Assembly (NCBI GenBank): GCA_963804955.1
Contig: CAWDSQ010000018.1
Location: 1-24,212, forward strand
Origin: an uncultured delta proteobacterium
GTDB taxonomy: Bacteria; Desulfobacterota; WTBG01; CAIYCZ01; CAIRTM01
Direction of reading: 5' to 3'
Length of the DNA stretch: 24,212 bases
The position numbers and the translations under genes were made by a program. Below, piece after piece: positions 584 through 24,212 of this stretch (the stretch's first letter is position 1; every line of letters begins with the position of its first letter). Below the pieces are notes generated by a model that was not told where the DNA came from, ran no database searches, and saw only the letters and a program-made list of their open reading frames with translations.

Positions 584-680
584 TTTGATTGGTTCCTTTG
601 GTTTTAGTATTATTGGCCGCCGGTACAACCCGTCTGCATAGATTAAAATACAACAAAAAATTAAACGCATACAATAAACC
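553..680. repeat. Degenerate tandem-inverted array (T-rich arm, then A-rich arm)
   Basis: ggttggatt, ggttccttt and ggttttagt units are followed by A-rich aatacaac/aattaaac/aataaac units, resembling the arrays at 5227-5334 and 6343-6369. Confidence 0.4.
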
Positions 681-702
681 GAGCACTCGTTTGGAGGTTT
701 CA

Positions 703-1688
<986 letters not shown>

Positions 1689-1700
1689 GCGGGGAACAAA

Positions 1701-1783
1701 GTTTCAACTGTTTCAGCCGTTCCAACCATTTCAACGGTTAATTAAAAGGCTGAAACAGTTGAAACAGCTGAAACGGTTGAAAC
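1701..1783. repeat. 9-nt tandem-inverted repeat hairpin (4+4 units)
   Basis: gtttcaact gtttcagcc gttccaacc atttcaacg, an 11-nt centre, then ggctgaaac agttgaaac agctgaaac ggttgaaac; the right arm is the reverse complement of the left consensus. Confidence 0.9.
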
Positions 1784-1793
1784 AATTTTATTC

Positions 1794-2669
1794 ATGATTT
1801 CAAAAGACGTCTTAAAAAACATCCGCCGCATTCATATCCGCACCAATCATATCGTCAATGATATTTTTGCCGGAGAATATGAAAGCGCGTTCCGCGGCCG
1901 CGGCATGGAGTTTGAGGAAGTGCGCGAATACGCCCCCGGCGACGATGTGCGCGACATCGACTGGAATGTCACAGCACGCTTCGGCCACCCCTTTGTCAAG
2001 GTCTACCGCGAAGAGCGCGAGCTGACAATCATGCTGCTGGTGGATGTAAGCTCCTCCTGCTTTTTCGGCACGCACAAGCGGCTCAAGCAGGAGCTTGCCG
2101 CCGAGATCGCCTCTGTGCTGGCCTTCGCAGCCACGAAAAGCAATGACAAAGTGGGGCTTATTATTTTCAGCGACCATATAGAAAAATTCATCCCTCCAAA
2201 GAAGGGGAAGAACCATGTCTGGGCGGTCATCAAAAGCGTGCTTGAGCATCAGCCCGTGTCCCGCAAAACAGATATCGCCGGCGCCCTCAGCTATCTCAAC
2301 CGCGTGGCTCGGCGCAAGGCAGTCGCCTTCCTTATCTCCGATTTCATCGCCGCAGACTATGAGAAGCCTTTGCGGGTGGCGGGCAAAAAGCATGATCTCA
2401 TCCCCATCTGCATTACCGACCCGCGCGAGCTTGATCTTCCCAAAGTGGGCCTGGTTGAGCTGCAGGATGCCGAAAGCGGAGAAACCATTCTCATCGATTC
2501 CTCTGATGCCGATTTCCGCACCGGCTACGGGCTTCTTGCCCGCAAGCGCCTGCAGGACCGCTTTGACCTCTTTCGGGCATCTGGCATCGATGCCATCGAT
2601 ATCCGGACAAATGTTCCCTATATCGATCCGATCATGAAATTCTTCAGAATGCGGGAGAAACGGCTGTGA
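1794..2669 (+). CDS. DUF58 domain protein (MoxR partner)
   Basis: GEYESAFRGRGMEFEEVREYAPGDDVRDIDWNVTAR, VKVYREERELTIMLLVDVSSS and FLISDF motifs; directly after moxR. Confidence 0.93.
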   Translation: MISKDVLKNIRRIHIRTNHIVNDIFAGEYESAFRGRGMEFEEVREYAPGDDVRDIDWNVTARFGHPFVKVYREERELTIMLLVDVSSSCFFGTHKRLKQELAAEIASVLAFAATKSNDKVGLIIFSDHIEKFIPPKKGKNHVWAVIKSVLEHQPVSRKTDIAGALSYLNRVARRKAVAFLISDFIAADYEKPLRVAGKKHDLIPICITDPRELDLPKVGLVELQDAESGETILIDSSDADFRTGYGLLARKRLQDRFDLFRASGIDAIDIRTNVPYIDPIMKFFRMREKRL

Positions 2670-3910
2670 ACAAATCATCGCTGATTATAAGCATGGCAAG
2701 CCTGTGCGTGGCTGCAGCAGCTCTGGTGCTGGTATACACAACCGGCGGCAGGTCAGTTCCGGGCCAGGCCTGGACATCAGAGAACCAGCGGGAGCTTGCA
2801 AACAAGCTCAAAAGCGCGGGACTTGCGCGTCAGGCAGTTCACGAATATGAGCAGTATATCCATACTGCACGGCTCGAGCCCGGGCAGCTTGCAGGCCTGT
2901 TCTACACCATCGGCAAAATGTGCATGGAGGCCGGTGACTATGAAAAGGCCCTGGCCTGGCTCTACCGGGTAGAGCTTGCCGATCCGCAGACAAAGCTCAA
3001 GGCTGAGCTGGGATCAAGCATCATCAACTGCCTTGAGCGCACGGGCCGCCACAGCGCTGCCGAGTATGCCCTGGCCAAACGCACCTCCGCGGCGGATAAC
3101 GCCACACGTTCCGGCGGCACCGTGGTCGCTGAAATCGGCAATGACAAGGTATACCTTGAGGATATCAACGAAGCTTTTGACAATCTTCCCGACTTGATAC
3201 GCAGGCAGTTCGAAAACAAAAGCTCAAAAGCTGAATTTGCCAAAAAATATATTGCCGATGAGCTGCTGTTCCGCAAGGCGCTGAAGCTGGAGCTTGATAA
3301 GGATGCCGATATCCGGAAAAAGATGAAGATGGCTCAGCGCGAGCTTATGGTCAACCGGGTGCTTGAGTCCGAGCTGAAAGACAAGCTCAAGATCGAGGAA
3401 GATGATCTGAAAAACTACTTCGAGGCGCATAAGGCCGACTATGATCAGAAAGAAGCCGTAAAGGTAAGCTTGATCGAAGCGGTAAACCGGGAGGCGGCTG
3501 ATAAAATATTCAAAGAGCTCAAAGGCGGCAGAGATTTTAGCGCCTATGCCAAAGAAATATCCCTTAACAAAAATACGGCCAAAGACGGCGGCCGCTTCCC
3601 CAATTGGGTGCGCAGGGGCGAGGACGACCTCGGTATCGGTAGCCCCGAAGCTGTTGCAAAGGCGCTCTTTTCAGCAAAAAAGGGTGCCTTGCTCGAGCCC
3701 GTGCAGGCCGGAGAGTCCTGGTTTGTGTTCCGGATTGAGGACACGCGGGCTGAGCAGCCCACCACCTATGATGAAGCAAAAGAACGGGTAAAAAACGACT
3801 ACTCCATGCAGAAGCTCAAAAGCTCCTACCAGAGCCTGCTTGAGCAGACCCTCAAAAGCTCGGATGTGAAGCTGCACCTTGAGGCGGTTACGGGTGATGG
3901 GAAGAAATAA
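2666..3910 (+). CDS. Membrane-anchored TPR + SurA/PrsA-like parvulin peptidyl-prolyl isomerase
   Basis: N-terminal TM helix; TPR-like LFYTIGKMCMEAGDYEKALAWL; VVAEIGNDKVYLEDI; rotamase-like DFSAYAKEISLNKNTAKDGG and PVQAGESWFVFRIED. GTGA overlap with DUF58. Confidence 0.8.
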   Translation: MNKSSLIISMASLCVAAAALVLVYTTGGRSVPGQAWTSENQRELANKLKSAGLARQAVHEYEQYIHTARLEPGQLAGLFYTIGKMCMEAGDYEKALAWLYRVELADPQTKLKAELGSSIINCLERTGRHSAAEYALAKRTSAADNATRSGGTVVAEIGNDKVYLEDINEAFDNLPDLIRRQFENKSSKAEFAKKYIADELLFRKALKLELDKDADIRKKMKMAQRELMVNRVLESELKDKLKIEEDDLKNYFEAHKADYDQKEAVKVSLIEAVNREAADKIFKELKGGRDFSAYAKEISLNKNTAKDGGRFPNWVRRGEDDLGIGSPEAVAKALFSAKKGALLEPVQAGESWFVFRIEDTRAEQPTTYDEAKERVKNDYSMQKLKSSYQSLLEQTLKSSDVKLHLEAVTGDGKK

Positions 3911-3997
3911 AATTTTCAGCCAAGGATTTTTTATGCGTGAGAGCAAGTCTGCACGATATATTCAAGGATGAAGCCACTCCTGCATAATAAACGGAAA

Positions 3998-4122
3998 GTC
4001 AACGACCACCCGCATAGCGGTGGCTTGATTTCGCCCTGAAAGGGCGGAAGCAAAAAACACGGCGTGTTTGAGTTGCCTTCTTAAGGGAACCATCGCCATA
4101 GGCGATGGTTTTCGAAAGGCAA
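3998..4122. mobile_element. Putative non-autonomous IS200/IS605-like (Y1) miniature element
   Basis: GTCAACGACCACCCGC-ATA-GCGGTGGCTTG at one end and AACCATCGCC-ATA-GGCGATGGTT at the other, with two more hairpins between; no ORF. Confidence 0.5.
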
Positions 4123-4170
4123 TAAACTTATCGTAACGATTTTAAGATTTAAGCTTTGTAATCGCCTATT

Positions 4171-5241
4171 ATGCTCATCCAAACAAAAAATTTTTCCGGG
4201 CAGTATCTTCGTAGGGTGCGCTGTGCGCACCGCCTCAAATCCGACTATCTCCATCACATAAAAATCGGTGCGCGCAGCGCACCCTACCCCTGCATTTTTA
4301 TACTGTTTCTTCTCTGCCTTGCCTGCACGGGCAATAAACAGGAAGCACAGAAAAAATCCGGCATACCGCCGGTTGAGATCAGCGCCCAGACCGACCGCAC
4401 CACGGCCTCCCTCTCGGAAGCCGTCACATTTAGGCTCAGCGCCCAATATGACAAAAACATTGAGGTGAAGCTGCCTGAAGTAGGCACGCAGATTGCCGGC
4501 CTGCGCATAACCGACTTTGGCGAAGAAGGCCCCAAAAAAATCGATGACCGGCTGGTGCATAAAAAATGGTATAAGCTTCAGGCCGACATTGCAGGTTCCT
4601 ATATTATCCCCGCACAGGTCATATCGTATACCGGAGATAACGGCACGCGGGAGCTCAAAACGCCGCAGATATTCATTGAGGTTAAGTCGTCGCTCAAGCC
4701 GGGGCCTGATGCGCCGAAAGACATTATCGACATCAAAACGCTTGAAGAAGTTCCGTTCAACTGGCGGCCCTATATCTGGGCAGGCTGCGCAGCACTTGTG
4801 TTTATCTGTCTCGGCGCCGGCGGCCTCATGTATTACCGTAAACGCAAAAAGAATGCAGCCGTACTGAAAAGGCCCGCTCACATAATCGCCCTTGAAGAAA
4901 TTGAAAAACTCAAAAGCGAGCATCTCATCGAAAAAGGTGTTGTGCGCGAGCACTATTTCAGGCTCTCGGATATTTTCAGGCGCTATATCGAAAACAGGTT
5001 TTCTATACCGGCCGTTGAGCAGACCACGCAGGAGCTGCTGCCCGAGATTATGAGCCTTGACGCCATGCACACAACTGCTAAATCAGGCGCCCGGGATTTT
5101 TTGCACCATTCAGACATGGTGAAATTCGCAAAGTATGTGCCTGCTGACGATGAAGTAAAGCTTAACGAACAGAATGTTGTCAGGATAATCGACGAAACAA
5201 AAATAGAAGAGGTTCTGCAAAACAGCAGTTCGATTAGTTGA
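4171..5241 (+). CDS. Bat-operon putative lipoprotein (BatD-like Ig domain, TM helix, DUF4381-like C-terminus)
   Basis: Lipobox-like FILFLLCLAC; ISAQTDRTTASLSEAVTFRL; DIIDIK then TM helix and YYRKRKK; AHIIALEEIEKL and HYFRLSDIFRRYIENRFSIPAVEQTTQE...DMVKFAK, typical of the gene preceding batA. Confidence 0.8.
   Translation: MLIQTKNFSGQYLRRVRCAHRLKSDYLHHIKIGARSAPYPCIFILFLLCLACTGNKQEAQKKSGIPPVEISAQTDRTTASLSEAVTFRLSAQYDKNIEVKLPEVGTQIAGLRITDFGEEGPKKIDDRLVHKKWYKLQADIAGSYIIPAQVISYTGDNGTRELKTPQIFIEVKSSLKPGPDAPKDIIDIKTLEEVPFNWRPYIWAGCAALVFICLGAGGLMYYRKRKKNAAVLKRPAHIIALEEIEKLKSEHLIEKGVVREHYFRLSDIFRRYIENRFSIPAVEQTTQELLPEIMSLDAMHTTAKSGARDFLHHSDMVKFAKYVPADDEVKLNEQNVVRIIDETKIEEVLQNSSSIS
4211..4287. repeat. 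GTAG-type REP doublet (REPIN-like) inside a CDS
   Basis: GTAGGGTGCGCTGTGCGCACCG (4211-4232) and inverted copy CGGTGCGCGCAGCGCACCCTAC (4266-4287), 21/22 match. Confidence 0.9.
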
Positions 5242-5334
5242 ATTGTTTCAATTAGTTTTATTGGTTAAAAGCACCCAAACCAATCAAACGAATTGAACAA
5301 ATAAAACCAATATAACTAATAAAACCTATTAAAC
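5227..5334. repeat. 9-nt tandem-inverted repeat array
   Basis: agttcgatt agttgaatt gtttcaatt agttttatt ggtt..., then caatcaaac gaattgaac aaataaaac caatataac taataaaac ctattaaac. Confidence 0.85.
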
Positions 5335-5341
5335 AATTTTT

Positions 5342-6337
5342 ATGCTCCGTTTTCAATCACCTTGGCTGCTTCTGCTGCTTGCCGTCATCCCTCTTATGGG
5401 ATGGTACGGGCTGCGGCGTTTTGCAAGCGCGCAGATCAGGTTTTCATCGCTGAGCGTGCTTGGACAGCTAAAAACCCCGAAAACTCTCCTGTGGCGCAAG
5501 GGACTTGTGTTTCTGCGCTGCGCGGCCATGGTTCTCTTTATCATCGCCCTTGCCCGGCCACAGTCAGGCATAAAATCCACTGAGATCTCGACCGAAGGCG
5601 TCGATATCATGCTGTGCCTCGACACCTCGGGCAGCATGCAGGCCCTTGATTTCAAGGAAGACGACAACCGTGTGCCGCGCCTGCAGGTGGTGAAGCGCGT
5701 TGTGAACGATTTCATCAAGGGCCGCAAAAACGACCGCATCGGCATGGTGGTATTCGGGCAGGAGGCCTTCACCCAGTGCCCGCTCACGCTTGACTACGGC
5801 GTTCTCTTGAGCTTTCTTGAAAAAGTCCAGATTGGCATGGCCGGCGACTCCACGGCAATAGGCTCAGCACTGGCCGTATGCGTAAAAAGGCTGAAAGACC
5901 TTCAGTCGAAAGCAAAGGTTATTATTCTCCTGACCGATGGACGCCACAATGCCGGCAGCGTAACGCCTCCCACGGCAGCCGATATTGGAAAATCCTTCAA
6001 CATCAAAATCTACACTATCGGCGTGGGCACGGAGGGCGAAGCTCCGTTTCTCGTGGATTCATTCTTCGGCAAGCAGTATATCTATCAGAAAGTCGACCTG
6101 GATGAAGACACGCTCAAGGACGTGGCAAACCGCACGGGTGGAAAATACTTCAGGGCAACAAACACGGAAGCCCTTGAAAATATTTACAAGCAAATCGATG
6201 CCATGGAAAAAACCGAAGTGAAGCTCAAGGAGTACATGGAATTTGAAGAGCTGTTCGGCTGGTTTCTCGTGCCGGGGCTTGTGCTGCTGCTTCTTGAAAT
6301 ACTGTTGGCAAACACGCGACTCAGGAAAATACCATGA
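5342..6337 (+). CDS. batA: BatA-like VWA domain membrane protein
   Basis: MLRFQSPWLLLLL, ALARPQ, GVDIMLCLDTSGSM (MIDAS), DRIGMVVF, TQCPLTLD, ILLTDGRHNAG, IYTIGVG, TGGKYFRA and a C-terminal TM. Confidence 0.92.
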   Translation: MLRFQSPWLLLLLAVIPLMGWYGLRRFASAQIRFSSLSVLGQLKTPKTLLWRKGLVFLRCAAMVLFIIALARPQSGIKSTEISTEGVDIMLCLDTSGSMQALDFKEDDNRVPRLQVVKRVVNDFIKGRKNDRIGMVVFGQEAFTQCPLTLDYGVLLSFLEKVQIGMAGDSTAIGSALAVCVKRLKDLQSKAKVIILLTDGRHNAGSVTPPTAADIGKSFNIKIYTIGVGTEGEAPFLVDSFFGKQYIYQKVDLDEDTLKDVANRTGGKYFRATNTEALENIYKQIDAMEKTEVKLKEYMEFEELFGWFLVPGLVLLLLEILLANTRLRKIP

Positions 6338-6342
6338 AACCA

Positions 6343-6490
6343 AGTTCGATTAGTTGGATTGGTCGAATTAATTTTTTGTTGGGTTAAGCCCGAAAAAAAC
6401 CGTTGGGTTTCGTGCCTCAACCCAACGCAAAACAAATACTTACTTAGAAGTACTAGTACAAGGGCGAACCCAACAAATCATAATTAAATT
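6343..6490. repeat. 9-nt repeat arm plus nested palindromes (REP-like)
   Basis: agttcgatt agttggatt ggtcgaatt; TTTGTTGGGTTAAGCCC (6375-6391) pairs with GGGCGAACCCAACAAA (6462-6477); inner hairpin CGTTGGGTTTCGTGCCTCAACCCAACG (6401-6427). Confidence 0.8.
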
Positions 6491-6497
6491 ATTTTAT

Positions 6498-7508
6498 ATG
6501 GACTTTGGCAATCTAGCATATCTGTTTCTGCTCTGGCTCATACCGGCACTGGTATTCTTCTTCATGTATTCGTTTATGAAGAAGCAGCGCTGCATTCAGG
6601 AATTCTGCGGGACCGACCTGAGCCGGAAGCTGCTTCCCGAGGTGCAGCGGGGCCGCCAGAAGCTGAAGGCTCTGCTGGTCATTCTTGCCGTTCTGTTTCT
6701 TATCATGGCGCTGGTGCGCCCGCGCTGGGGCTTTCACTGGGAAGATATCAAGCGAACCGGCGTTGATGTCATGGTTGCGGTCGACGTATCCAAAAGCATG
6801 CTCGCCCGCGATATAGAGCCCAGCCGCCTCGAGCGTGCCAAGCGCAAGGTTCAGGACCTTGTGAAAATGCTCGAGGGCGACCGCATCGGCCTCATAGCCT
6901 TTGCAGGAGCCAGTTTCGTGCAGTGCCCGCTCACGCTCGACTACGGCGCGTTCAGCATGTTCCTTGACTATCTCTCGCCCGATCTGATTCCAGTGCCCGG
7001 CACGGCCATCGGCGATGCTATACGAAAAGCCGTTGAATCCTTCAGCCGGCAGGATCGCACTTCAAAAGCGCTCATCCTCATCACCGACGGCGAAGACCAT
7101 GACAGCAAGCCCCTTGAAGCTGCCGGGCTTGCCAAAAAAGAGGGTGTCCGGATATTTGCCATAGGCATCGGCAAAGAGGATGAGGGCGCGCCTATCCCCG
7201 CAGGCGAAGGCTCCGGGGGTTTTATGAAAGACAGGCAGGGGAATATGATCATGAGCAGGCTTGATGAAAAGACCCTGCAGAAAATAGCCCTTGAAACTGG
7301 CGGCAGCTATGTGCGGTCGGTCACGGGCGATCTGGACCTTGAGGCGATATACAAAAATGAGATTCGAAAAAGCATGGAGCAGAAAGAGCTGACCTCAACG
7401 CGCAAGAAACGCTGGGAAGAGCGTTTTCAGTGGTTCCTTGCCGCCGCCGTGCTCCTGCTGCTTGCCGAATTCTTTATCCGCGAAAAAAGCGCTGCCAAAG
7501 ATCAATGA
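6498..7508 (+). CDS. batB: BatB-like VWA domain membrane protein
   Basis: ALVRPRWG, DVMVAVDVSKSMLARDIEPSRLERAK, DRIGLIAFAG, LILITDGEDH, GAPIP, ERFQWFL. Confidence 0.92.
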   Translation: MDFGNLAYLFLLWLIPALVFFFMYSFMKKQRCIQEFCGTDLSRKLLPEVQRGRQKLKALLVILAVLFLIMALVRPRWGFHWEDIKRTGVDVMVAVDVSKSMLARDIEPSRLERAKRKVQDLVKMLEGDRIGLIAFAGASFVQCPLTLDYGAFSMFLDYLSPDLIPVPGTAIGDAIRKAVESFSRQDRTSKALILITDGEDHDSKPLEAAGLAKKEGVRIFAIGIGKEDEGAPIPAGEGSGGFMKDRQGNMIMSRLDEKTLQKIALETGGSYVRSVTGDLDLEAIYKNEIRKSMEQKELTSTRKKRWEERFQWFLAAAVLLLLAEFFIREKSAAKDQ

Positions 7509-11538: not shown

Positions 11539-13788
11539 ATGCATTTCAAAAAACCGATATTCTTTATTTCCCATCTCGGTTCTTTTATTTTCTTGAGCCT
11601 CATATTTCTGCACCCTGCACAGGCTGCTGCAAAACAAAACGGGATGGGCAAGCTGGCTTTTGAGGGCCGATATGCATATGCCAACCCCGATAAAGGCTGG
11701 GAAGGCAGCGCCATGCATAAAGCTAAACTGACATCATCTGATGGTGATGAGCACAATGATCTGAAAGTCATTTCAGATCAGAATTCAGTTGCTACAGCCG
11801 AGGAACAAGGGGGGGGGTGGGAAGAGAGCCCAGAAGCCGTCATGTTGATCCCCCCCGATTTCGTGTTCGGTGATTTTTGGTGTGCGGTATCAGACAACAC
11901 TGTCACAATCACCCGCTATATCGGCACTGGTGGAGCTGTTCTAATTCCGGATAACATAACAGGCATGCCGGTTGTCGCCATCGGACAGTATTGTGCATAC
12001 GCCGATATATTCGACAATTGCTATGATTATAATGGTGCGTTTGAAGATTGCGCCAGTGTGACCAGCGTGAGCATACCTGCCAGCATCACGGGTATAGCGT
12101 ATAATGCGTTTTGGGGTTGCGCCGGTTTGACCAACTTTGATGTTGATACAGGCAATACCGCCTATAGCAGTCAGGATGGCGTGCTGTACAATAAAGCCAG
12201 GACATTGCTTCGTCAATACCCTCCAAGTAAAAGCGATGCAATCTTCACAATCCCCGGAACTGTTACGACCATTGGAGAAGTTGCGTTCGAAGGTTGCACC
12301 GATTTAACCAGCGTAACTATACCAAACAGTGTTTCTGAGATTGGATGGTCAGCGTTTCGGGGTTGCACCGGTTTGACCAGCGTGACTTTGCCAAATAGCA
12401 TTATGGCTATTAATGGCTACACCTTTGCTTTCTGCACGAGTTTAACCAGCATAATCATACCGAACAGCGTTGGGCGCATTGAAGATAATGCATTCGAAGG
12501 GTGCATCGGTTTAACCAGCGTCTCTATACCAAGCAGTGTTACTGACATTGGATCGTCAGCGTTTTGGGGTTGCACCGATTTAACCAGCGTAACTATACCA
12601 AACAGTGTTTCTGAGATTGGATGGTCAGCGTTTCGGGGTTGCACCGGTTTGACCAGCGTGACTTTGCCAAATAGCATTATGGCTATTAATGGCTACACCT
12701 TTGCTTTCTGCACGAGTTTAACCAGCATAATCATACCGAACAGCGTTGGGCGCATTGAAGATAATGCCTTCGAAGGGTGCACCGCCCTGGCCAGCATCAC
12801 TATCCTGGGCAGTTTAACAAGTATTGGGAGCAACTCCTTTGAAGGCTGCATTGGGCTAACCAGTATTAGCATACCAGGTAGCGTTACAAGCATTGGAAAT
12901 GGGGCGTTTCGATATTGCACCGGTTTGACCACCGTAACCATACCCGGCAGCGTAACAGATCTTGGGTGGTACGCCTTTGCCGGTTGCAGCGGATTGACAA
13001 GCATACATGTTGATGCACGCAATACCGTATACAGCAGTCAGGATGGTGTGCTGTACAACAAAAACAGGACAACGCTTATTCAGTATCCAGACGGAAAAAA
13101 CGATGCTGATTTTACAATTCCTGACGGCGTTACGAGCGTTGGTGACGGCGCATTTTATCAATGCCCTGCCTTGACCAGCGTGACCATACCTGCCAGCGTT
13201 ATAACCATGTATGGCTATTCGGAGTATTGTGAAGGTATTTGCGCCTATTATTACCAATTCCCTGTAGGGGGGTGCGCGTACTATACCTATTCATGTGCTA
13301 CTAAAAATTATGCTTCGTTTTATACCTGTAGTAATTTGACCAGCGCCTATTTCCTGGGACAAACACCTGAAACAATATATAGTTGTAATGGTTATTACCC
13401 TTACTCTTATTGCAATACAAACACAGGTCCCTTTCATAGTTGCGGAACGGATTTTAAGATTTTCTATATTCAACCAACAACAACCACCACAACAATAACG
13501 GCAGAAACCTGCACGATAGAAATTTTTCCCCGCAGGCTTAGCAAGGTGATGAATACTGTCATGCAGCTGCAGGCTTTTATAATCCGGGGCGATGAAAACT
13601 CTTCTTTTTCAAAGGCAACCGACATCGACTGGGGCACCCCGAGCATTGAAACACTGGTGCAGGCCGCTTTAAACAAAAGACTCATCATCGCCCTGGTGCT
13701 GGTTAACGGCAGCAATCAGGAGGTGGGGGATATCTACGACGTGACCGTTGACAATTGCTCGGGAGAACTTTCTGTGAAGATGTTCTAA
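11539..13788 (+). CDS. Secreted BspA-type (LRR_5/TpLRR) leucine-rich repeat protein with Thr linker and C-terminal domain
   Basis: Signal peptide ending AQA-A; 23-aa repeats of the form LTSVTIPNSVxxIGxxAFxGCTx; two YSSQDGVLYNK inserts; PTTTTTT linker. Confidence 0.92.
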   Translation: MHFKKPIFFISHLGSFIFLSLIFLHPAQAAAKQNGMGKLAFEGRYAYANPDKGWEGSAMHKAKLTSSDGDEHNDLKVISDQNSVATAEEQGGGWEESPEAVMLIPPDFVFGDFWCAVSDNTVTITRYIGTGGAVLIPDNITGMPVVAIGQYCAYADIFDNCYDYNGAFEDCASVTSVSIPASITGIAYNAFWGCAGLTNFDVDTGNTAYSSQDGVLYNKARTLLRQYPPSKSDAIFTIPGTVTTIGEVAFEGCTDLTSVTIPNSVSEIGWSAFRGCTGLTSVTLPNSIMAINGYTFAFCTSLTSIIIPNSVGRIEDNAFEGCIGLTSVSIPSSVTDIGSSAFWGCTDLTSVTIPNSVSEIGWSAFRGCTGLTSVTLPNSIMAINGYTFAFCTSLTSIIIPNSVGRIEDNAFEGCTALASITILGSLTSIGSNSFEGCIGLTSISIPGSVTSIGNGAFRYCTGLTTVTIPGSVTDLGWYAFAGCSGLTSIHVDARNTVYSSQDGVLYNKNRTTLIQYPDGKNDADFTIPDGVTSVGDGAFYQCPALTSVTIPASVITMYGYSEYCEGICAYYYQFPVGGCAYYTYSCATKNYASFYTCSNLTSAYFLGQTPETIYSCNGYYPYSYCNTNTGPFHSCGTDFKIFYIQPTTTTTTITAETCTIEIFPRRLSKVMNTVMQLQAFIIRGDENSSFSKATDIDWGTPSIETLVQAALNKRLIIALVLVNGSNQEVGDIYDVTVDNCSGELSVKMF
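12292..12781 (+). repeat. Intragenic direct duplication, 214 bp, offset 276 bp
   Basis: 12292-12505 vs 12568-12781, identical except 12492 A / 12768 C. Confidence 0.95.
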
Positions 13789-17030: not shown

Positions 17031-17064
17031 AAAAAGCCTGCCATGAATCACGACAGGCTTTTTT
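17031..17064 (-). terminator. Rho-independent terminator (potentially bidirectional)
   Basis: AAAAAGCCTGCCATGAATCACGACAGGCTTTTTT, about 30 nt after the reductase stop. Confidence 0.75.
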
Positions 17065-17096: not shown

Positions 17097-18780
17097 TTAT
17101 TTCATCCCATGGACCTTCTCATAGGGCCACATCACAATGCCGCCGTCCATGACGCGCACCCGCGAAAACCCTGCGGCTTTAAGAATGAGTGCGGCCTCAT
17201 AGCCGCGGATTGACAGGCGGCAAAACGTGACTATGTCTTTGTCTTTCGGGATTTCCGAAAACCGGGAGCGCAGGGCGCCCGACGGAATATGCATCGAGCC
17301 GGGCAGCCGCACTTCTTCGTACTCCTGCGGCGAGCTCACGTCCAGCAGCACGAAATTTTCATGGCGCTGCAGTCTTGGCATACACTTCCATGGGACTGAT
17401 GCTTTCAAAAACGCCGGCAAGCTTGTTTTTGGCAATATTGGCGCCGGTGATGAGATTGTCCATGGCAAGGGAATACGGCGGAGCATAGCAGAGATCGAGA
17501 TTGGCAATCTGATCCACCGTCATGCCTGCAGTGATTGCGGTCGTGGCCACATCGACGCGCTTGTCGCCCTGCCCCGGGCCTGCCGCCTGCACGCCCAGGA
17601 GCCGTCGCGATGGCGCATCGACGATCAGTTTCAGCATCAGAGGTTTTGCATTGGGCATAAAATGCTCGCGGTCGGGACGCGCCGGTAAGCACCGTCACCA
17701 CATCAAATCCGGCATCGCGGGCATCGGCTTCGGTAAGCCCTGTACGGGCGATACAGTAATCAAACACCTTGCAGACCACGGTGCCGAGCACGCCGGGAAA
17801 GGTTTCATTGCCGCCGCAAATATTGACGGCAGCAATGCGGCCCTGTTTATTGGCCGTTGAGCCCATGGGCACGTATATGGGCAGCCCGGTCATGATGTCG
17901 ATATTTTCCACGCAGTCGCCTGCGGCAAGATATCGGGGTCGGAGGTCATCATGCGGTTGTCGACTCTGATGGCCTGCATGGGGCCGATTTCAAGGCCTGC
18001 ATTGCGGGCAAGTTCCACCTGGGGGCTTACGCCCACGCCCGAGTATCACCATATCGGCCGGCAGCGTGCCCTTGTCAGTCACCACGCCCTCAACAAACTC
18101 GGCGCCGGCAAATGACATGACGCGGGTATCGGTCATGACGCGCACGCCATTTGCCTCCATGTGCAGCTCAAGCAGCTGCGCCATTTCCCAGTCAAGGGTG
18201 CGCATGATCCGATTCAGGGCCTCAACGATGGTCACGCGGGCAGCCGCGGGCCACCAGCGCTTCGGTCATTTCAACACCGATGAGGCCGCCGCCGACGATG
18301 ACTACGTCGCGCGCCTTTCGGCTTGCAAGATGAGTGCGCACGCCTTCGGCATCGCGCACGCCGTGCAGGGTATAGATATTGTTTAAATGCGCGCCGGGCA
18401 GAGGCGGTATGATGGGTGTGGCGCCTGTAGCCATCACGAGCTTGTCATAGCCGATCCTGCTTTCCCTGGATGAAATAAGATTTTTGATGCGCACGCGCTT
18501 GGCCGCGCGGTCGATTTCAAGGGCCTCGGTTCGGTTCAGAACACTTCACATTTTTCAGATTTTGAAAAAAAACAGGGTCGCGCACGCAGCCGAGAGGCGT
18601 GCTCATGAGCTCCTTCTGGTCCTTCACGACGCCCGAAACATAGTAGGGAAGGCCGCAACCGGCATAGGAGAGAAACTCGCCCCGCTCAATGATGGTAACG
18701 GCGGTTTCAGGCTGGAGGCGAATGACCTTTGATGCAACCTTGGGACCCGCAGCAACGCCGCCGATGATGACCACCTTCAT
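17097..18780 (-). CDS. CoA-disulfide/persulfide reductase-rhodanese (CoADR-RHD/Npsr-like flavoprotein); about six frameshifts
   Basis: MKVVIIGGVAAG (FAD), SYAGCGLPYY (redox Cys), YDKLVMATGA, VVIVGGGLIGVE (NADH), GSTANKQGR, LDLCYAPPYS, and a C-terminal rhodanese IVTFCRLSIRGYEA...MDGGIVMW. Confidence 0.9.
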
Positions 18781-18790
18781 GCGGTCCTGG

Positions 18791-19534
18791 TCAAACAGCT
18801 CCGACTCCCCGGGGGACCTGGTCGTCGGCAATGCGGGGCAGCACCATGGAGAACTCAGCCCCGCCGAAATCGGCCTTCTGAACCGAGATTCTGCCGCCGG
18901 CGGCATCAACCACAGCCTTAACAAAGGCAAGCCCGAGGCCCACGCCCGGAAGGGTCGTGTTCTGAACGCTTGCCGAACGGTAGAAGGGCTCGAAAATCCT
19001 TTCGCGCTGGTCTTCGGGCACGCCGATGCCCGAATCAGCCACTGAAATGCATATGGAATCGTTGTGGCACGAAGCAACGAGTGTCAGGCGAACCTTACCA
19101 TTATCGGGGGTGTATTTCAGGGCATTGTTCACCAGGGCATTGATCACCTCGGCAAAACCGGATTCGGCTATGCGTATATAGGCGGGCTCTATCTGGATAT
19201 CAAGGCTCAGGGCTATATGGCGGCTACGGGCTTCCTCTGTCAGCTGATGCTGTGCGCGGCGAACCACGGCTGCGGCTTCGCAGATGGAGTTGCCGTCGCC
19301 GCCGCTTGTTTCAGGCCGCACAATGGCCAGCATCCTGGTTACGGCATCAAGCGCCTCCTCGATGCGCCTGTCCGCCCGTGACACCAGATCTTTCTGCTTT
19401 GAATTGAGGCGGCCTGCATACTCGCCCAGTATCGTTTTGAGCAGCGATGCAGCCGCGCCGACAGGAGAGCGCAGCTGGTGGGCAACCAGAGCGGCAAATT
19501 GCAGGGGGTCTTCATGTCCTTTTTTTTCAGTCAT
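18791..19534 (-). CDS. Histidine kinase core (HisKA + HATPase_c) with no N-terminal sensor; possibly fused to the downstream reductase
   Basis: H-box AHQLRSPV at residue 19, N-box LVNNALKYT, G1 DSGIGVP, F IFEPFYR, G2 GVGLGLAFVK. Confidence 0.9.
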   Translation of the reverse strand: MTEKKGHEDPLQFAALVAHQLRSPVGAAASLLKTILGEYAGRLNSKQKDLVSRADRRIEEALDAVTRMLAIVRPETSGGDGNSICEAAAVVRRAQHQLTEEARSRHIALSLDIQIEPAYIRIAESGFAEVINALVNNALKYTPDNGKVRLTLVASCHNDSICISVADSGIGVPEDQRERIFEPFYRSASVQNTTLPGVGLGLAFVKAVVDAAGGRISVQKADFGGAEFSMVLPRIADDQVPRGVGAV

Positions 19535-19577
19535 GGCTGCCTGCTGCTACACGGAGGAGGTTTTCAATAAGGGATAA

Positions 19578-19607
19578 AGTATAGGCGAAGACCGGCCCGG
19601 GTGTCAA
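19578..19607 (-). promoter_or_regulatory. Near-consensus sigma70 promoter of the kinase-reductase unit
   Basis: Minus strand TTGACA (19607-19602) -N18- TATACT (19583-19578), 43 nt upstream of ATG 19534. Confidence 0.7.
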
Positions 19608-20560: not shown

Positions 20561-20750
20561 GCCTGGCTCCCTGAATGGGTTTATTGAGGTTTACCTAGAG
20601 TAAGTATATATAACAAAAAATAATCATTCAAGCCTTTTAACAAAAGACCGGCAGCTATTGTCCGGCAGCGCCCTTTCTATCTTATGTTGCCCCGCAGCAG
20701 GCTTCTGTGATAGCCTCGTTGCCGGTGTTTCAGAGGCAGGGGTTAAAATC

Positions 20751-21884
20751 ATGCAGACCGTAGACAGCGTTATTATCGGCGGCGGCGTCGTAGGGCTAGC
20801 CGTTGCCGCTGAACTGGCCCGGAGGTTCCCTGGCCGGTCAGTTGCGCTGCTTGAGCGCAATACCGCATGCGGGCAGGAAACCTCAAGCCGTTCCAGCGAA
20901 GTAATCCATGCCGGCATCTACTATGCCCGCGGCTCTCTCAGGGCGCGGCTCTGCGTGGAGGGAAAAAACCTGCTCTATCATTTCTGCCGGCGCTGGAATG
21001 TTCCCCACCGCCGTATCGGCAAGCTGATTGTCGCCAAAAGCCCTGAAGAAGCCGCAACACTCGATGACCTGATGAACTGCGGCATGCTCAATGGCGTTGA
21101 CGATCTGGAGCTTCTTGACCGAAGACAGGTGCAGGCCCTGGAGCCCCATGTGGAGGCCATAAGCGCTCTATGGTCGCCCTCAACCGGCATTATCGACTCC
21201 CACGGCCTTACGGCCAGGCTTGCCTGGCGCGCTGCTCTGAGCAGGGCGCGACTGTTGCATGCCGCCATGAGGTTTTCGGCATCGACAAGGCAGCCGATGG
21301 GTATGATGTATATTTCCTCTGCCCGGATTCGGCGCAGGACCTCCTGCGCTGCTCCTGGGTTGTCAACTGCGCAGGCCTCGGCGCCGAGCGCATTGCGGCA
21401 TCCGCCGGCATTGATAGTGCTGCGGCAGGCTACCGGCTCTATTACTGCAAAGGTGAATATTTTCGCATACCCCCGTCAAAGGGGCAGCTTGTCAGCCATC
21501 TTGTCTACCCGCCGCCGTACAAGGATCTGCTGGGCCTTGGCATTCATGTGACAAAATCACTTGACGGCATGACAAAGCTCGGGCCCAATGCCTTCTATGT
21601 TGACGGGCTTGACTATGATGTCGACGATCCGGGCCATGCCCGGGAATTTTACGACGGCGTAAAGGACTATCTGCCGTTTCTCTCGCATGACGACCTGCAG
21701 CCGGATACCGCGGGCATACGGCCCAAGCTGCAGGCGCCCCGGCACTCCGGCCAGGGACTTTGTCATCCGCCATGAGGCTGATAAGGGGCTTCCGGGCTTC
21801 ATTAACCTCATCGGCATCGAGTCGCCGGGCCTCACTTCATGCCTTGCCATCGGAAACATGGTGGCTGATATGATTGAACTCTAA
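20751..21884 (+). CDS. FAD-dependent oxidoreductase, L-2-hydroxyglutarate oxidase (LhgO)-like; frameshifts ~21250 and ~21740
   Basis: [77 protein letters not shown]. Confidence 0.88.
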
Positions 21885-22734: not shown

Positions 22735-24212
22735 ATGGGAACTATACAGGTCCTCTCAGAAATTGTTGCCAATAAAATTGCCGCGGGCGAAGTTGTCGAG
22801 CGCCCCGCGTCCATAGTGAAGGAACTGGTTGAAAACTCGCTTGACGCCGGAGCGCGGACCATCGCTGTATGGGTGGGCTATGGCGGCAAGGGGCTTATCC
22901 GGATAAAAGATGACGGTTGCGGCATGGACGCCGACAATATTGCCGAACCTGCCTGCTGCGGCATGCCACCAGCAAAATCACCGATGCCGATGATATTGAG
23001 CGCATCGCCACACTGGGCTTCCGGGGCGAAGCCCTGCCGAGCATCGCATCGGTATCGCGCCTCACGCTCATCACCCGCAGGCCCTGCGATGACGCCGCAA
23101 CCATTATTAAAAGCTCAGGCGGCGTTGTCGAGTCTGTAAGCCAGTGCGTAGCGGAGCCCGGCACAACACTGGAGGTTGCGGATCTTTTTTTCAATACTCC
23201 TGCCCGCCGGAAATTTTTGAAATCCGACCCGGCAGAATACAATGCCATTGCCGAGATATTCATGACCATCTGCCTTTCCCGCAGCGACGTCTCCTTTACC
23301 CTGCGCCGCAACAATGACATTGTTGCCGACTACCCGGCATGCCCGGGCCTTCTTGAGCGCATCGGCCAGCTGTATTCGCCCGACGTTTTCGAAAAGCTGT
23401 ACCGCGTCACCATCGACAAAACCGATTTCAAACTTGATGGCTATGTAAGCGCCCCCGACACCACGCGCGTAAACCGCACCGGGCAGAAGTTCTTCATCAA
23501 TGGCAGACCGGTGCAGTCTGCGGGTCTCAGCATGGCCCTTACCCGCTGGTATCGCGAGTTTCTGCCCCGGGGCCGTTTTCCTGTTGCCTTTCTCTTTCTC
23601 GGCATCCCGCACGATTTTGTCGATGTGAATGTGCATCCTGCCAAGCGCGAGGTGCGGCTGCGGACGGAAGACTATTTCAGGATCTTATTGTGCGGGCAAT
23701 AAAAAAGGAGCTGCATGGCAAAGGTTTTTTTCTTGAAGTACCCTCCAGCCGCATGCCCAGGATTTGCTGCGCGAACACGCAGTGGACGGTCGCCCTTGTT
23801 CCGTTTCAACTTGCTGCGGGAGGACTCGACGACCTGGCTGATACAGGAAAAAACAACTGTTCCCGCAGGAGAAGGCGCCTGGAGCAGCAGACCCCGGCTG
23901 CCATCCTGCTCGAAGAGGCCATCAGCCGTCAGCGCGCCGACGCTCGGTGGGTTTTCCGTTCGACTCGGTCAGGGTGACCGGCCAGGTGCTGGGCATGTAT
24001 ATTATTGCTGAAAAAGACGGAGAGATTGCCGTGTTTGACCAGCATGCGGCACATGAGCGGATTTTGTACGAAGAGCTGCTGGCCTCTCTGAAGCAGAGTA
24101 CGGGTGCGGCACAGAAAATGATTTTCCCGGTCACGCTGCATCTGGGCATACAGGAAGGGCCTATCATGGAGGGCGCCGTTGGCTACTTTCAGCAGCTCGG
24201 CTTCGGCATAAA
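22735..24212 (+). CDS. mutL: DNA mismatch repair protein MutL (runs off window; several frameshifts)
   Basis: [76 protein letters not shown], and endonuclease motif [12 protein letters not shown] from 24037. Confidence 0.95.

Follow-up and report, generated by a model that had tools for sequence, protein, structure and literature searches.

The described systems that come conceptually nearest to a histidine kinase joined to a persulfide reductase are the redox and flavin kinases (MmoS, the LOV kinases, ArcB and RegB) and the persulfide regulators (CstR, SqrR, BigR and FisR), all of which turn a redox or reactive-sulfur state into a regulatory output. Kinases of this type carry small PAS or LOV flavin domains, or cysteine or quinone switches, N-terminal of the kinase, and the persulfide sensors are one-component transcription factors. 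In anaerobes, what is known of reactive-sulfur and NADH/NAD+ sensing comes mainly from one-component repressors. To our knowledge, none of these sensors uses a whole pyridine-nucleotide-disulfide oxidoreductase placed behind a kinase, and no histidine kinase tied to the sensing of reactive sulfur species or of NADH/NAD+ was found in open-access papers and preprints. On the enzyme side, AfNpsr of A. fulgidus is described in the excerpted report (PMC7969121) as a dimer, specific for NADH, in which the reduction of persulfides and polysulfide proceeds by way of its rhodanese cysteine, bound coenzyme A (CoA) and Cys42. The window analysed here, a stretch of 24,212 nucleotides (nt), is the whole of contig C18 of assembly G000 (GCA_963804955.1; 36 contigs, 4.26 Mb, 87% complete) from an uncultured delta proteobacterium. 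Its minus strand, on which all coordinates of the gene are given, almost certainly holds at 19534..17097 a single gene whose product, soluble and about 810 amino acids (aa) long, joins a kinase core (HisKA and HATPase_c) to an Npsr/CoADR-RHD-type flavoenzyme (Pyr_redox_2, Pyr_redox_dim and Rhodanese). A protein of this size and domain order had been proposed by a sequence-only reading of the window, and it is borne out by in-frame copies on two sister contigs, by stop-free frames in genomes of the same genus and by full-length fusions in other organisms. The overall best explanation is one fused gene with the flavoenzyme as the probable input module of the kinase, and we regard this combination as fairly likely.

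The kinase open reading frame (ORF) of the window occupies 19534..18791 on the minus strand (247 aa) and carries HisKA and HATPase_c domains with no N-terminal sensor. Its core (DHp plus HATPase_c) covers 18794..19534, with the His19 codon at 19478-19480, and only 18 residues precede the phospho-accepting histidine. In Pfam, HisKA scores 28.9 bits over kinase residues 12-75 (cutoff 26.9) and HATPase_c 86.5 bits over residues 125-234. An in-frame TAG stands at 19547-19549, four codons 5' of the kinase ATG. The flavoenzyme module (17097..18780, minus strand) is split over several frames as read in the window; on the in-frame copy of contig C3 its domains score 214.6 bits (Pyr_redox_2), 65.0 bits (Pyr_redox_dim) and 53.2 bits (Rhodanese), each above the Pfam cutoff. 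The FAD and NADH motifs are kept, as are both cysteines that the sequence-only reading had pointed out, with the codon of the flavin-proximal Cys42 (SYAGCGLPY; Cys293 of the fusion) at 18655-18657 and that of the rhodanese cysteine at 17220-17222. The two halves are connected by a linker of about 16 residues (18781..18830, minus strand; approximately residues 236-251 of the fused protein). At the apparent junction the kinase ends in TGA (18791-18793), which is followed after 10 nt by the reductase ATG (18780-18778), in agreement with the spacing first described.

The same assembly holds two further copies of the region, on contigs C17 and C3, which are 94-97% identical. In the three-way alignment the CCCC of the window (18807..18810, strand-neutral, adjoined by GGGGG at 18811-18815) is a CCC in both of them, and the one extra base makes the apparent TGA. 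Both sister contigs are open through the junction as ...DDQVPRESELFDQDRMKVV..., with the read-through peptide ...DDQVPRESELFDQDRMKVVIIGG... and the in-frame junction sequence ...PRIADDQVPRESELFDQDRMKVVIIGG... in each. The earlier proposal that removal of one base from the CCCC/GGGGG run joins the two frames is thus upheld by the reading through of C17 and C3; the predicted junction is corrected, since it reads ...VPRESELF... and not ...VPGESELF..., the surplus base being one C of the plus-strand C-run. Contig C3 has a single open frame of 660 aa from the middle of the CA (ATP-binding) domain to the rhodanese end, and C17 has a frame of 708 aa from the kinase start through the junction, which includes a garbled stretch between two compensating indels.

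A protein search with the C3 frame as query against 5.8 billion proteins looked for single polypeptides with the five domains, as had been suggested. Among the 120 best matches, 118 combine HATPase_c with Pyr_redox_2, Pyr_redox_dim and Rhodanese; a length of 780-850 aa with the same five domains is found in 111. The closest homologs are thus fused. Where the public entries have names, these are 'FAD-dependent oxidoreductase' or 'NADPH-dependent 2,4-dienoyl-CoA reductase/sulfur reductase-like enzyme'. Relatives are encoded by 463 stretches of species-representative genomes; the 80 of these to which the counts of loci refer comprise 55 full-length fusions, 18 stand-alone reductases (62-67% identical over residues ~240-806) and 7 loci cut by contig ends. 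The hosts are metagenome-assembled genomes from at least six phyla, namely Thermodesulfobacteriota, Planctomycetota (Phycisphaerae, Pirellulales and Brocadiia), Verrucomicrobiota/Lentisphaerae/Victivallales, Hydrogenedentota, Anaerolineales and Myxococcota. Within the 40 relatives examined, the gene forms a single stop-free frame of 819-841 codons in two genomes of the same genus (G002 and G004) and in four of the same family (G005, G011, G012 and G013), is broken near residue 156 in G003, and lies in pieces at contig ends in G001 and G006; in seven other family genomes only the stand-alone paralogue and no fusion was seen. The gene order of the window (divergent DAO oxidase, DUF2333, fusion) recurs at loci L007, with an intact fused ORF of 810 aa, and L024, where the contig ends at residue 322, and the DUF2333 synteny is limited to these closest relatives.

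The own genome also encodes a separate stand-alone paralogue on contig C14 (46% identical). In a crude neighbour-joining tree of 62 sequences (50 bootstraps, C14 paralogue as outgroup), 15 stand-alone relatives interleave with the fusions without strong support; L045 and L047 are mis-extracted long branches in it, 11 loci gave no single ORF with a simple gene caller, and the number of fusion gains or losses is not drawn from it. Genes for the closest stand-alone reductases are often clustered with MinD/ParA-type Fer4 NTPases, DUF5320, NifX-like (Nitro_FeMo-Co) and ARMT1-like genes (L034, L070, L072, L077, L079 and L083, most of them stand-alone loci). The nine nearest representatives of the kinase core (41-48% identity) are fusions, fragments of fusions or kinase-only ORFs of ~239 aa, beyond which the scores fall sharply to generic multi-domain kinases; as judged from these scores, the kinase core is a distinct subfamily. 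No description of a kinase-reductase fusion was found in open-access papers and preprints, which agrees with the earlier remark that the architecture is uncharacterised. On these comparisons the fused design is real, conserved and widespread in anaerobes, and is a new variant that joins known kinase and enzyme types, whose function we infer. Its carriers include sulfate reducers, Planctomycetota and Verrucomicrobiota, all drivers of the sulfur and hydrogen cycles.

Residue conservation was assessed in 148 distinct full-length family members. Of these, 147 have His19 (the other has a gap), and the residues of the N, G1, F and G2 boxes (N137, D167/G169/G171, F184 and G197/G199/G201) are invariant, as are Cys293, the FAD and NAD glycines and Glu437 of the NADH site at the end of the NAD beta-strand. 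The rhodanese cysteine (Cys770 of the fusion) is kept in 129 members and replaced by Ser in 10 and by Gly in 9, and is present in all 15 close stand-alone relatives. Both halves retain their catalytic motifs and look active. Cysteines C431, C572 and C587 were considered as fusion-specific residues and ruled out, as they are also found in stand-alone relatives. The residue following the histidine is Gln in 147 of the 148 fused members. In a comparison set of 264 other kinase domains, taken from the 150 nearest representatives, the residue is Glu in 226, Asp in 32, Gln in 5 and His in 1. An acidic residue at this position aids autophosphorylation and is part of the HisKA phosphatase motif (E/DxxT/N). 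The near-invariant Gln at the usual Glu/Asp site therefore marks the family as a putative catalytic variant of the HisKA kinases, and suggests altered kinase or phosphatase chemistry. No more than 34 residues precede the histidine in 144 of the 148 members (14-34 in most, mode 18), which leaves no room for an N-terminal sensor. Glu, Ala, Pro and Ser abound in the linker, which is fairly constant in length, the spacing from G225 to G258 being 32 residues in 90 of the 148 members (range 28-36). Many members keep a methionine where the reductase module begins, corresponding to ATG 18780 of the window: of the 148, 58 have it at position 252 and 56 at position 248. This methionine may be either a relic of an ancestral start codon or an internal start from which free reductase is also made.

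No other possible sensor domain is recognisable in the predicted protein, and the chances that the flavoenzyme is the input module, reporting the NADH or persulfide state to the kinase, appear evenly balanced. In such a mechanism, the state of the flavoenzyme would be set by NADH/NAD+ and by the turnover of persulfide or polysulfide at the Cys-CoA/FAD site. This state would alter the hold of the enzyme dimer on the kinase dimer, or its contacts with it, and would in turn tune the autophosphorylation of His19. The phosphoryl group would then pass to a stand-alone single-domain (CheY-like) receiver, for which the own genome has a candidate on contig C24. The loss of the rhodanese cysteine in some fusions and the presence of the separate C14 paralogue both fit a shift from catalysis towards sensing. 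A fuller version of the proposal can be offered only tentatively, as a 'trigger-enzyme' histidine kinase: a catalytically competent flavoenzyme would itself be the sensor, the turnover of NADH and of persulfide or polysulfide would set the phosphorylation of His19, and an orphan CheY-like receiver would carry the signal onwards, so that outputs such as NAD-linked hydrogenases would be tied to reducing power or reactive-sulfur load. If this is true, reading of the NADH or sulfane-sulfur state through an enzyme would be new among known histidine kinases, and the conserved His-Gln pair would be the hallmark of a separate catalytic variant. As the protein is a soluble and widely conserved single polypeptide, its putative signal-generating chemistry and the kinase read-out could be assayed together.

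No REC domain was found in the 21 window ORFs of at least 100 aa that were tested, as had been stated from the sequence. Possible partners were looked at around the fused homologs, where the sequence-only reading had suggested checking for response regulators. An ORF with REC flanks 13 of the 55 fusions and none of the 18 stand-alone reductases, a rate among the fusions that is not above chance in a receiver-rich genome (approximately 105 REC open-frame hits in 4.26 Mb here). The receiver signal is the immediate adjacency, and not the overall flank rate. An immediately adjacent single-domain receiver is present at 6 of the 55 fused loci, convergent downstream at L008, L025 and L030 and upstream on the same strand at L040, L052 and L062. 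The receivers of L008, L025 and L030 have the same best match in the own genome (91-102 bits vs 49-66 bits for the runner-up). The candidate orphan single-domain receiver (123 aa) is encoded at C24:154295-154663 (L087:7293-7664, minus strand), between the gene for MsrB and that for an aldehyde:ferredoxin oxidoreductase, and a frameshifted second copy of it is found at C7:480127-480493. Counting G000, 10 family genomes have the fusion, and 9 of these give a match of at least 114 bits to the C24 receiver; the 7 genomes without the fusion give none. This co-occurrence is confounded by kinship.

NAD-linked hydrogenase operons flank the fusion at 4 of the 62 fused or partial loci, of the NiFe type at L013, L025 and L030 and of the FeFe type at L067. 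The three NiFe operons encode a large and a small subunit and a NuoF-like one, and only at L025 was a NuoG-like subunit confirmed as well; the L067 operon contains FeFe hydrogenase genes and a NuoF-like subunit. At L025 and L030 the single-domain receiver is located between the hydrogenase operon and the fusion. At L040 (7200-11405) one operon encodes a 449-aa histidine kinase with a GAF domain, a 131-aa single-domain receiver and the 815-aa kinase-reductase fusion, which suggests two kinases feeding one receiver. Apart from the receivers and the four hydrogenase cases, no neighbour cluster is common to more than 5 of the 55 fused loci.

Several properties of the protein, like the chance-level flank rate and the kinship just mentioned, speak against an enzymatic input. 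The sensor would lie C-terminal to the kinase, which is an unusual position, and the Gln beside the histidine could mean that the kinase is weak. The linker is variable (column entropy 3.3 bits, vs 1.0-1.7 bits in the domains) and is probably flexible, whereas most sensor kinases signal through rigid helices. A flexible linker and a C-terminal enzyme weigh against a classical signalling-helix mechanism, and leave room for the alternative of a tethered or regulated enzyme. In that alternative, which we consider rather unlikely, the arrow is reversed or the protein is simply bifunctional: a metabolic flavoenzyme that reduces persulfide or polysulfide and re-oxidizes NADH would be regulated by the kinase through ATP binding or phosphorylation, or the kinase would be controlled by other proteins (a receiver or a second kinase), and the enzyme would not be a sensor. 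The reductase is the better conserved half (~1.0 bit vs 1.7 bits for the kinase half) and keeps all its catalytic motifs, as such a role would have it, and the GAF-domain kinase and receiver that precede the fusion at L040 suggest a multi-kinase network with input from other sensors. On the other side, the rhodanese cysteine is lost in 19 of the 148 fusions and in none of the 15 stand-alone relatives, which fits relaxed enzymatic constraint in the fused state, and a metabolic role could be filled by the C14 paralogue. Also, we know of no precedent for an enzyme regulated by a covalently attached DHp-CA kinase core.

That the window itself does not show the fused frame is most likely due to the assembly. 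The gene is interrupted in C18 by seven one-base indels (near 17372, 17675, 17929, 18037, 18238, 18544 and 18807), six of them besides the one at the junction, so that the reductase is as rich in indels as the sequence-only reading had noted. Contig C17 has three and C3 two, at differing places, and only that at 17675 is common to C18 and C17. Over 652 codons, C18 and C3 differ by 67 synonymous and 26 non-synonymous codons, and C17 and C3 by 42 and 6. With such a synonymous excess the indels look like consensus errors and not like decay, and the contigs like strain variants of a gene under purifying selection. Nearly the entire contig C18 recurs in C17 and C3 (89-98% identity), the differences being substitutions and many one-base indels. 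Copies that differ in this way indicate that the bin probably holds several strain haplotypes with a noisy consensus. Other window genes are similarly split, namely those for MoxR (589-1688), a DAO-family oxidase (20658-21775) and MutL (22735-23702). Contigs of four other public runs, from related strains, disagree with the odd bases of C18 near 17372, 17675, 17929, 18037, 18238 and 18544.

A true pseudogene in the C18 strain, with real frameshifts in a decaying locus, is very improbable in our view. It would account for seven frame-breaking indels in 2.4 kb; it is countered by the mostly synonymous differences from C3, by the different places at which the other two copies and the neighbouring genes are broken, and by the intact frame in the related contigs of the four other runs and in the same-genus genomes. 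Three observations count against the one-gene reading, the first two also in favour of a pseudogene. The break at 17675, being present in both C18 and C17, is compatible with a real shared mutation. No public read run matches the sequence of this assembly, the best run sharing 0.15 of sampled words. At 18807 itself the public-run evidence is limited to how long a single bridging contig is (contig 29 of run X5), which spans 18673-18919 with 246 letters for 247 places. No RNA run holding the window sequence was listed among the public runs. Assembly error remains the most likely source of the seven indels, and has a wider consequence: error-rich assemblies split fusions of this kind into apparent pairs of an 'orphan kinase' and a 'broken oxidoreductase'.

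The weakest alternative, two translationally coupled genes with a real TGA after a sensor-less kinase and a reductase translated from AGGA-N4-ATG, is scarcely tenable: it takes the window sequence as it stands and could draw on the kinase-only ORFs of ~239 aa among the nearest representatives (P0126, P0128 and P0131) and on the methionine at position 248 or 252, against which two of the three same-assembly copies are in frame, as is every intact relative, none of the 18 stand-alone reductase loci has a kinase-core gene next to it, the ~239-aa ORFs may themselves be fragmentary or similarly split, and the AGGA once suggested as a ribosome-binding site lies within the Gln-Asp codons of the linker. 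The tightly coupled pair that had been entertained next to the fusion is therefore unsupported.

Upstream of the single fused gene, a sigma-70-like promoter (TTGACA-N18-TATACT, 19578..19607, minus strand) matches at 11 of 12 positions and is situated in the 93-nt gap after the DUF2333 gene; with it, the sensor-less kinase with its histidine at residue 19 and the upstream TAG, all of the kinase features first read from the sequence are confirmed. The region contains 5 promoter-like sites, compared with 2.3 ± 1.3 in shuffled sequences. The site is also present in contig C3, where it is separated from the gene by a repeat of ~175 bp (C3:18743-18921) inserted between it and the start of the fused gene. 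This dispersed repeat has at least 30 copies in the genome (73-90% identity), one of them at window positions 6372-6478, between two BatA/VWA genes. A strong hairpin resembling an intrinsic terminator (17031..17063, minus strand; 15 pairs followed by a T-run) is found 34 nt past the stop codon. Elsewhere in the window, positions 589-7508 hold a Bat/aerotolerance-type operon with a MoxR AAA ATPase, DUF58, a PpiC-type peptidyl-prolyl isomerase protein, a gene of unknown type and two BatA-VWA proteins. A direct repeat of 214 bp (12292-12505 and 12568-12781, 99.5% identity) is contained in a BspA-type leucine-rich-repeat gene of 749 aa (11539-13788).

In comparison with known systems, fusion residues 252-810 align end to end with the Npsr/CoADR-RHD enzymes, the best solved relative being AfNpsr of A. 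fulgidus (6pfz, E 2.7e-145), followed by the CoADR-RHD of B. anthracis (3icr, E 7e-109) and the Npsr of Shewanella loihica (3nta, E 1.7e-101); the CoA-persulfide reductase 8a56 matches with E 2.3e-90. The domain order of the reductase half is identical to that of these enzymes. The flavin-proximal cysteine aligns with Cys42 of AfNpsr and the rhodanese cysteine with the cysteine of its rhodanese motif, numbered Cys519 in the excerpted report, and the Glu of the NADH site fits the NADH specificity given there (PMC7969121). The fusion falls under the NCBIfam equivalog cutoffs for CoA-disulfide reductase proper (TIGR03385 and NF007123), with 414 vs 578.8 and 374 vs 458 bits. The characterised Npsr/CoADR-RHD enzymes are stand-alone dimers of ~550-575 aa, whereas the fusion adds an N-terminal kinase core of 250 residues and, in the minority of members noted above, has no rhodanese cysteine. 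Over residues 5-234 the fusion matches the HisKA kinases HK853 (3dge) and WalK/YycG (3sl2) in the PDB (E ~1e-18), with which it shares the DHp plus CA core, the histidine, the N, G1, F and G2 boxes and the Pfam HisKA and HATPase_c domains. It differs from HisKA kinases in that DHp is preceded by no input of the transmembrane, PAS, GAF or HAMP kind and in the replacement of the usual acidic residue after the histidine by Gln, and its only other domains lie C-terminal to the kinase and form an enzyme.

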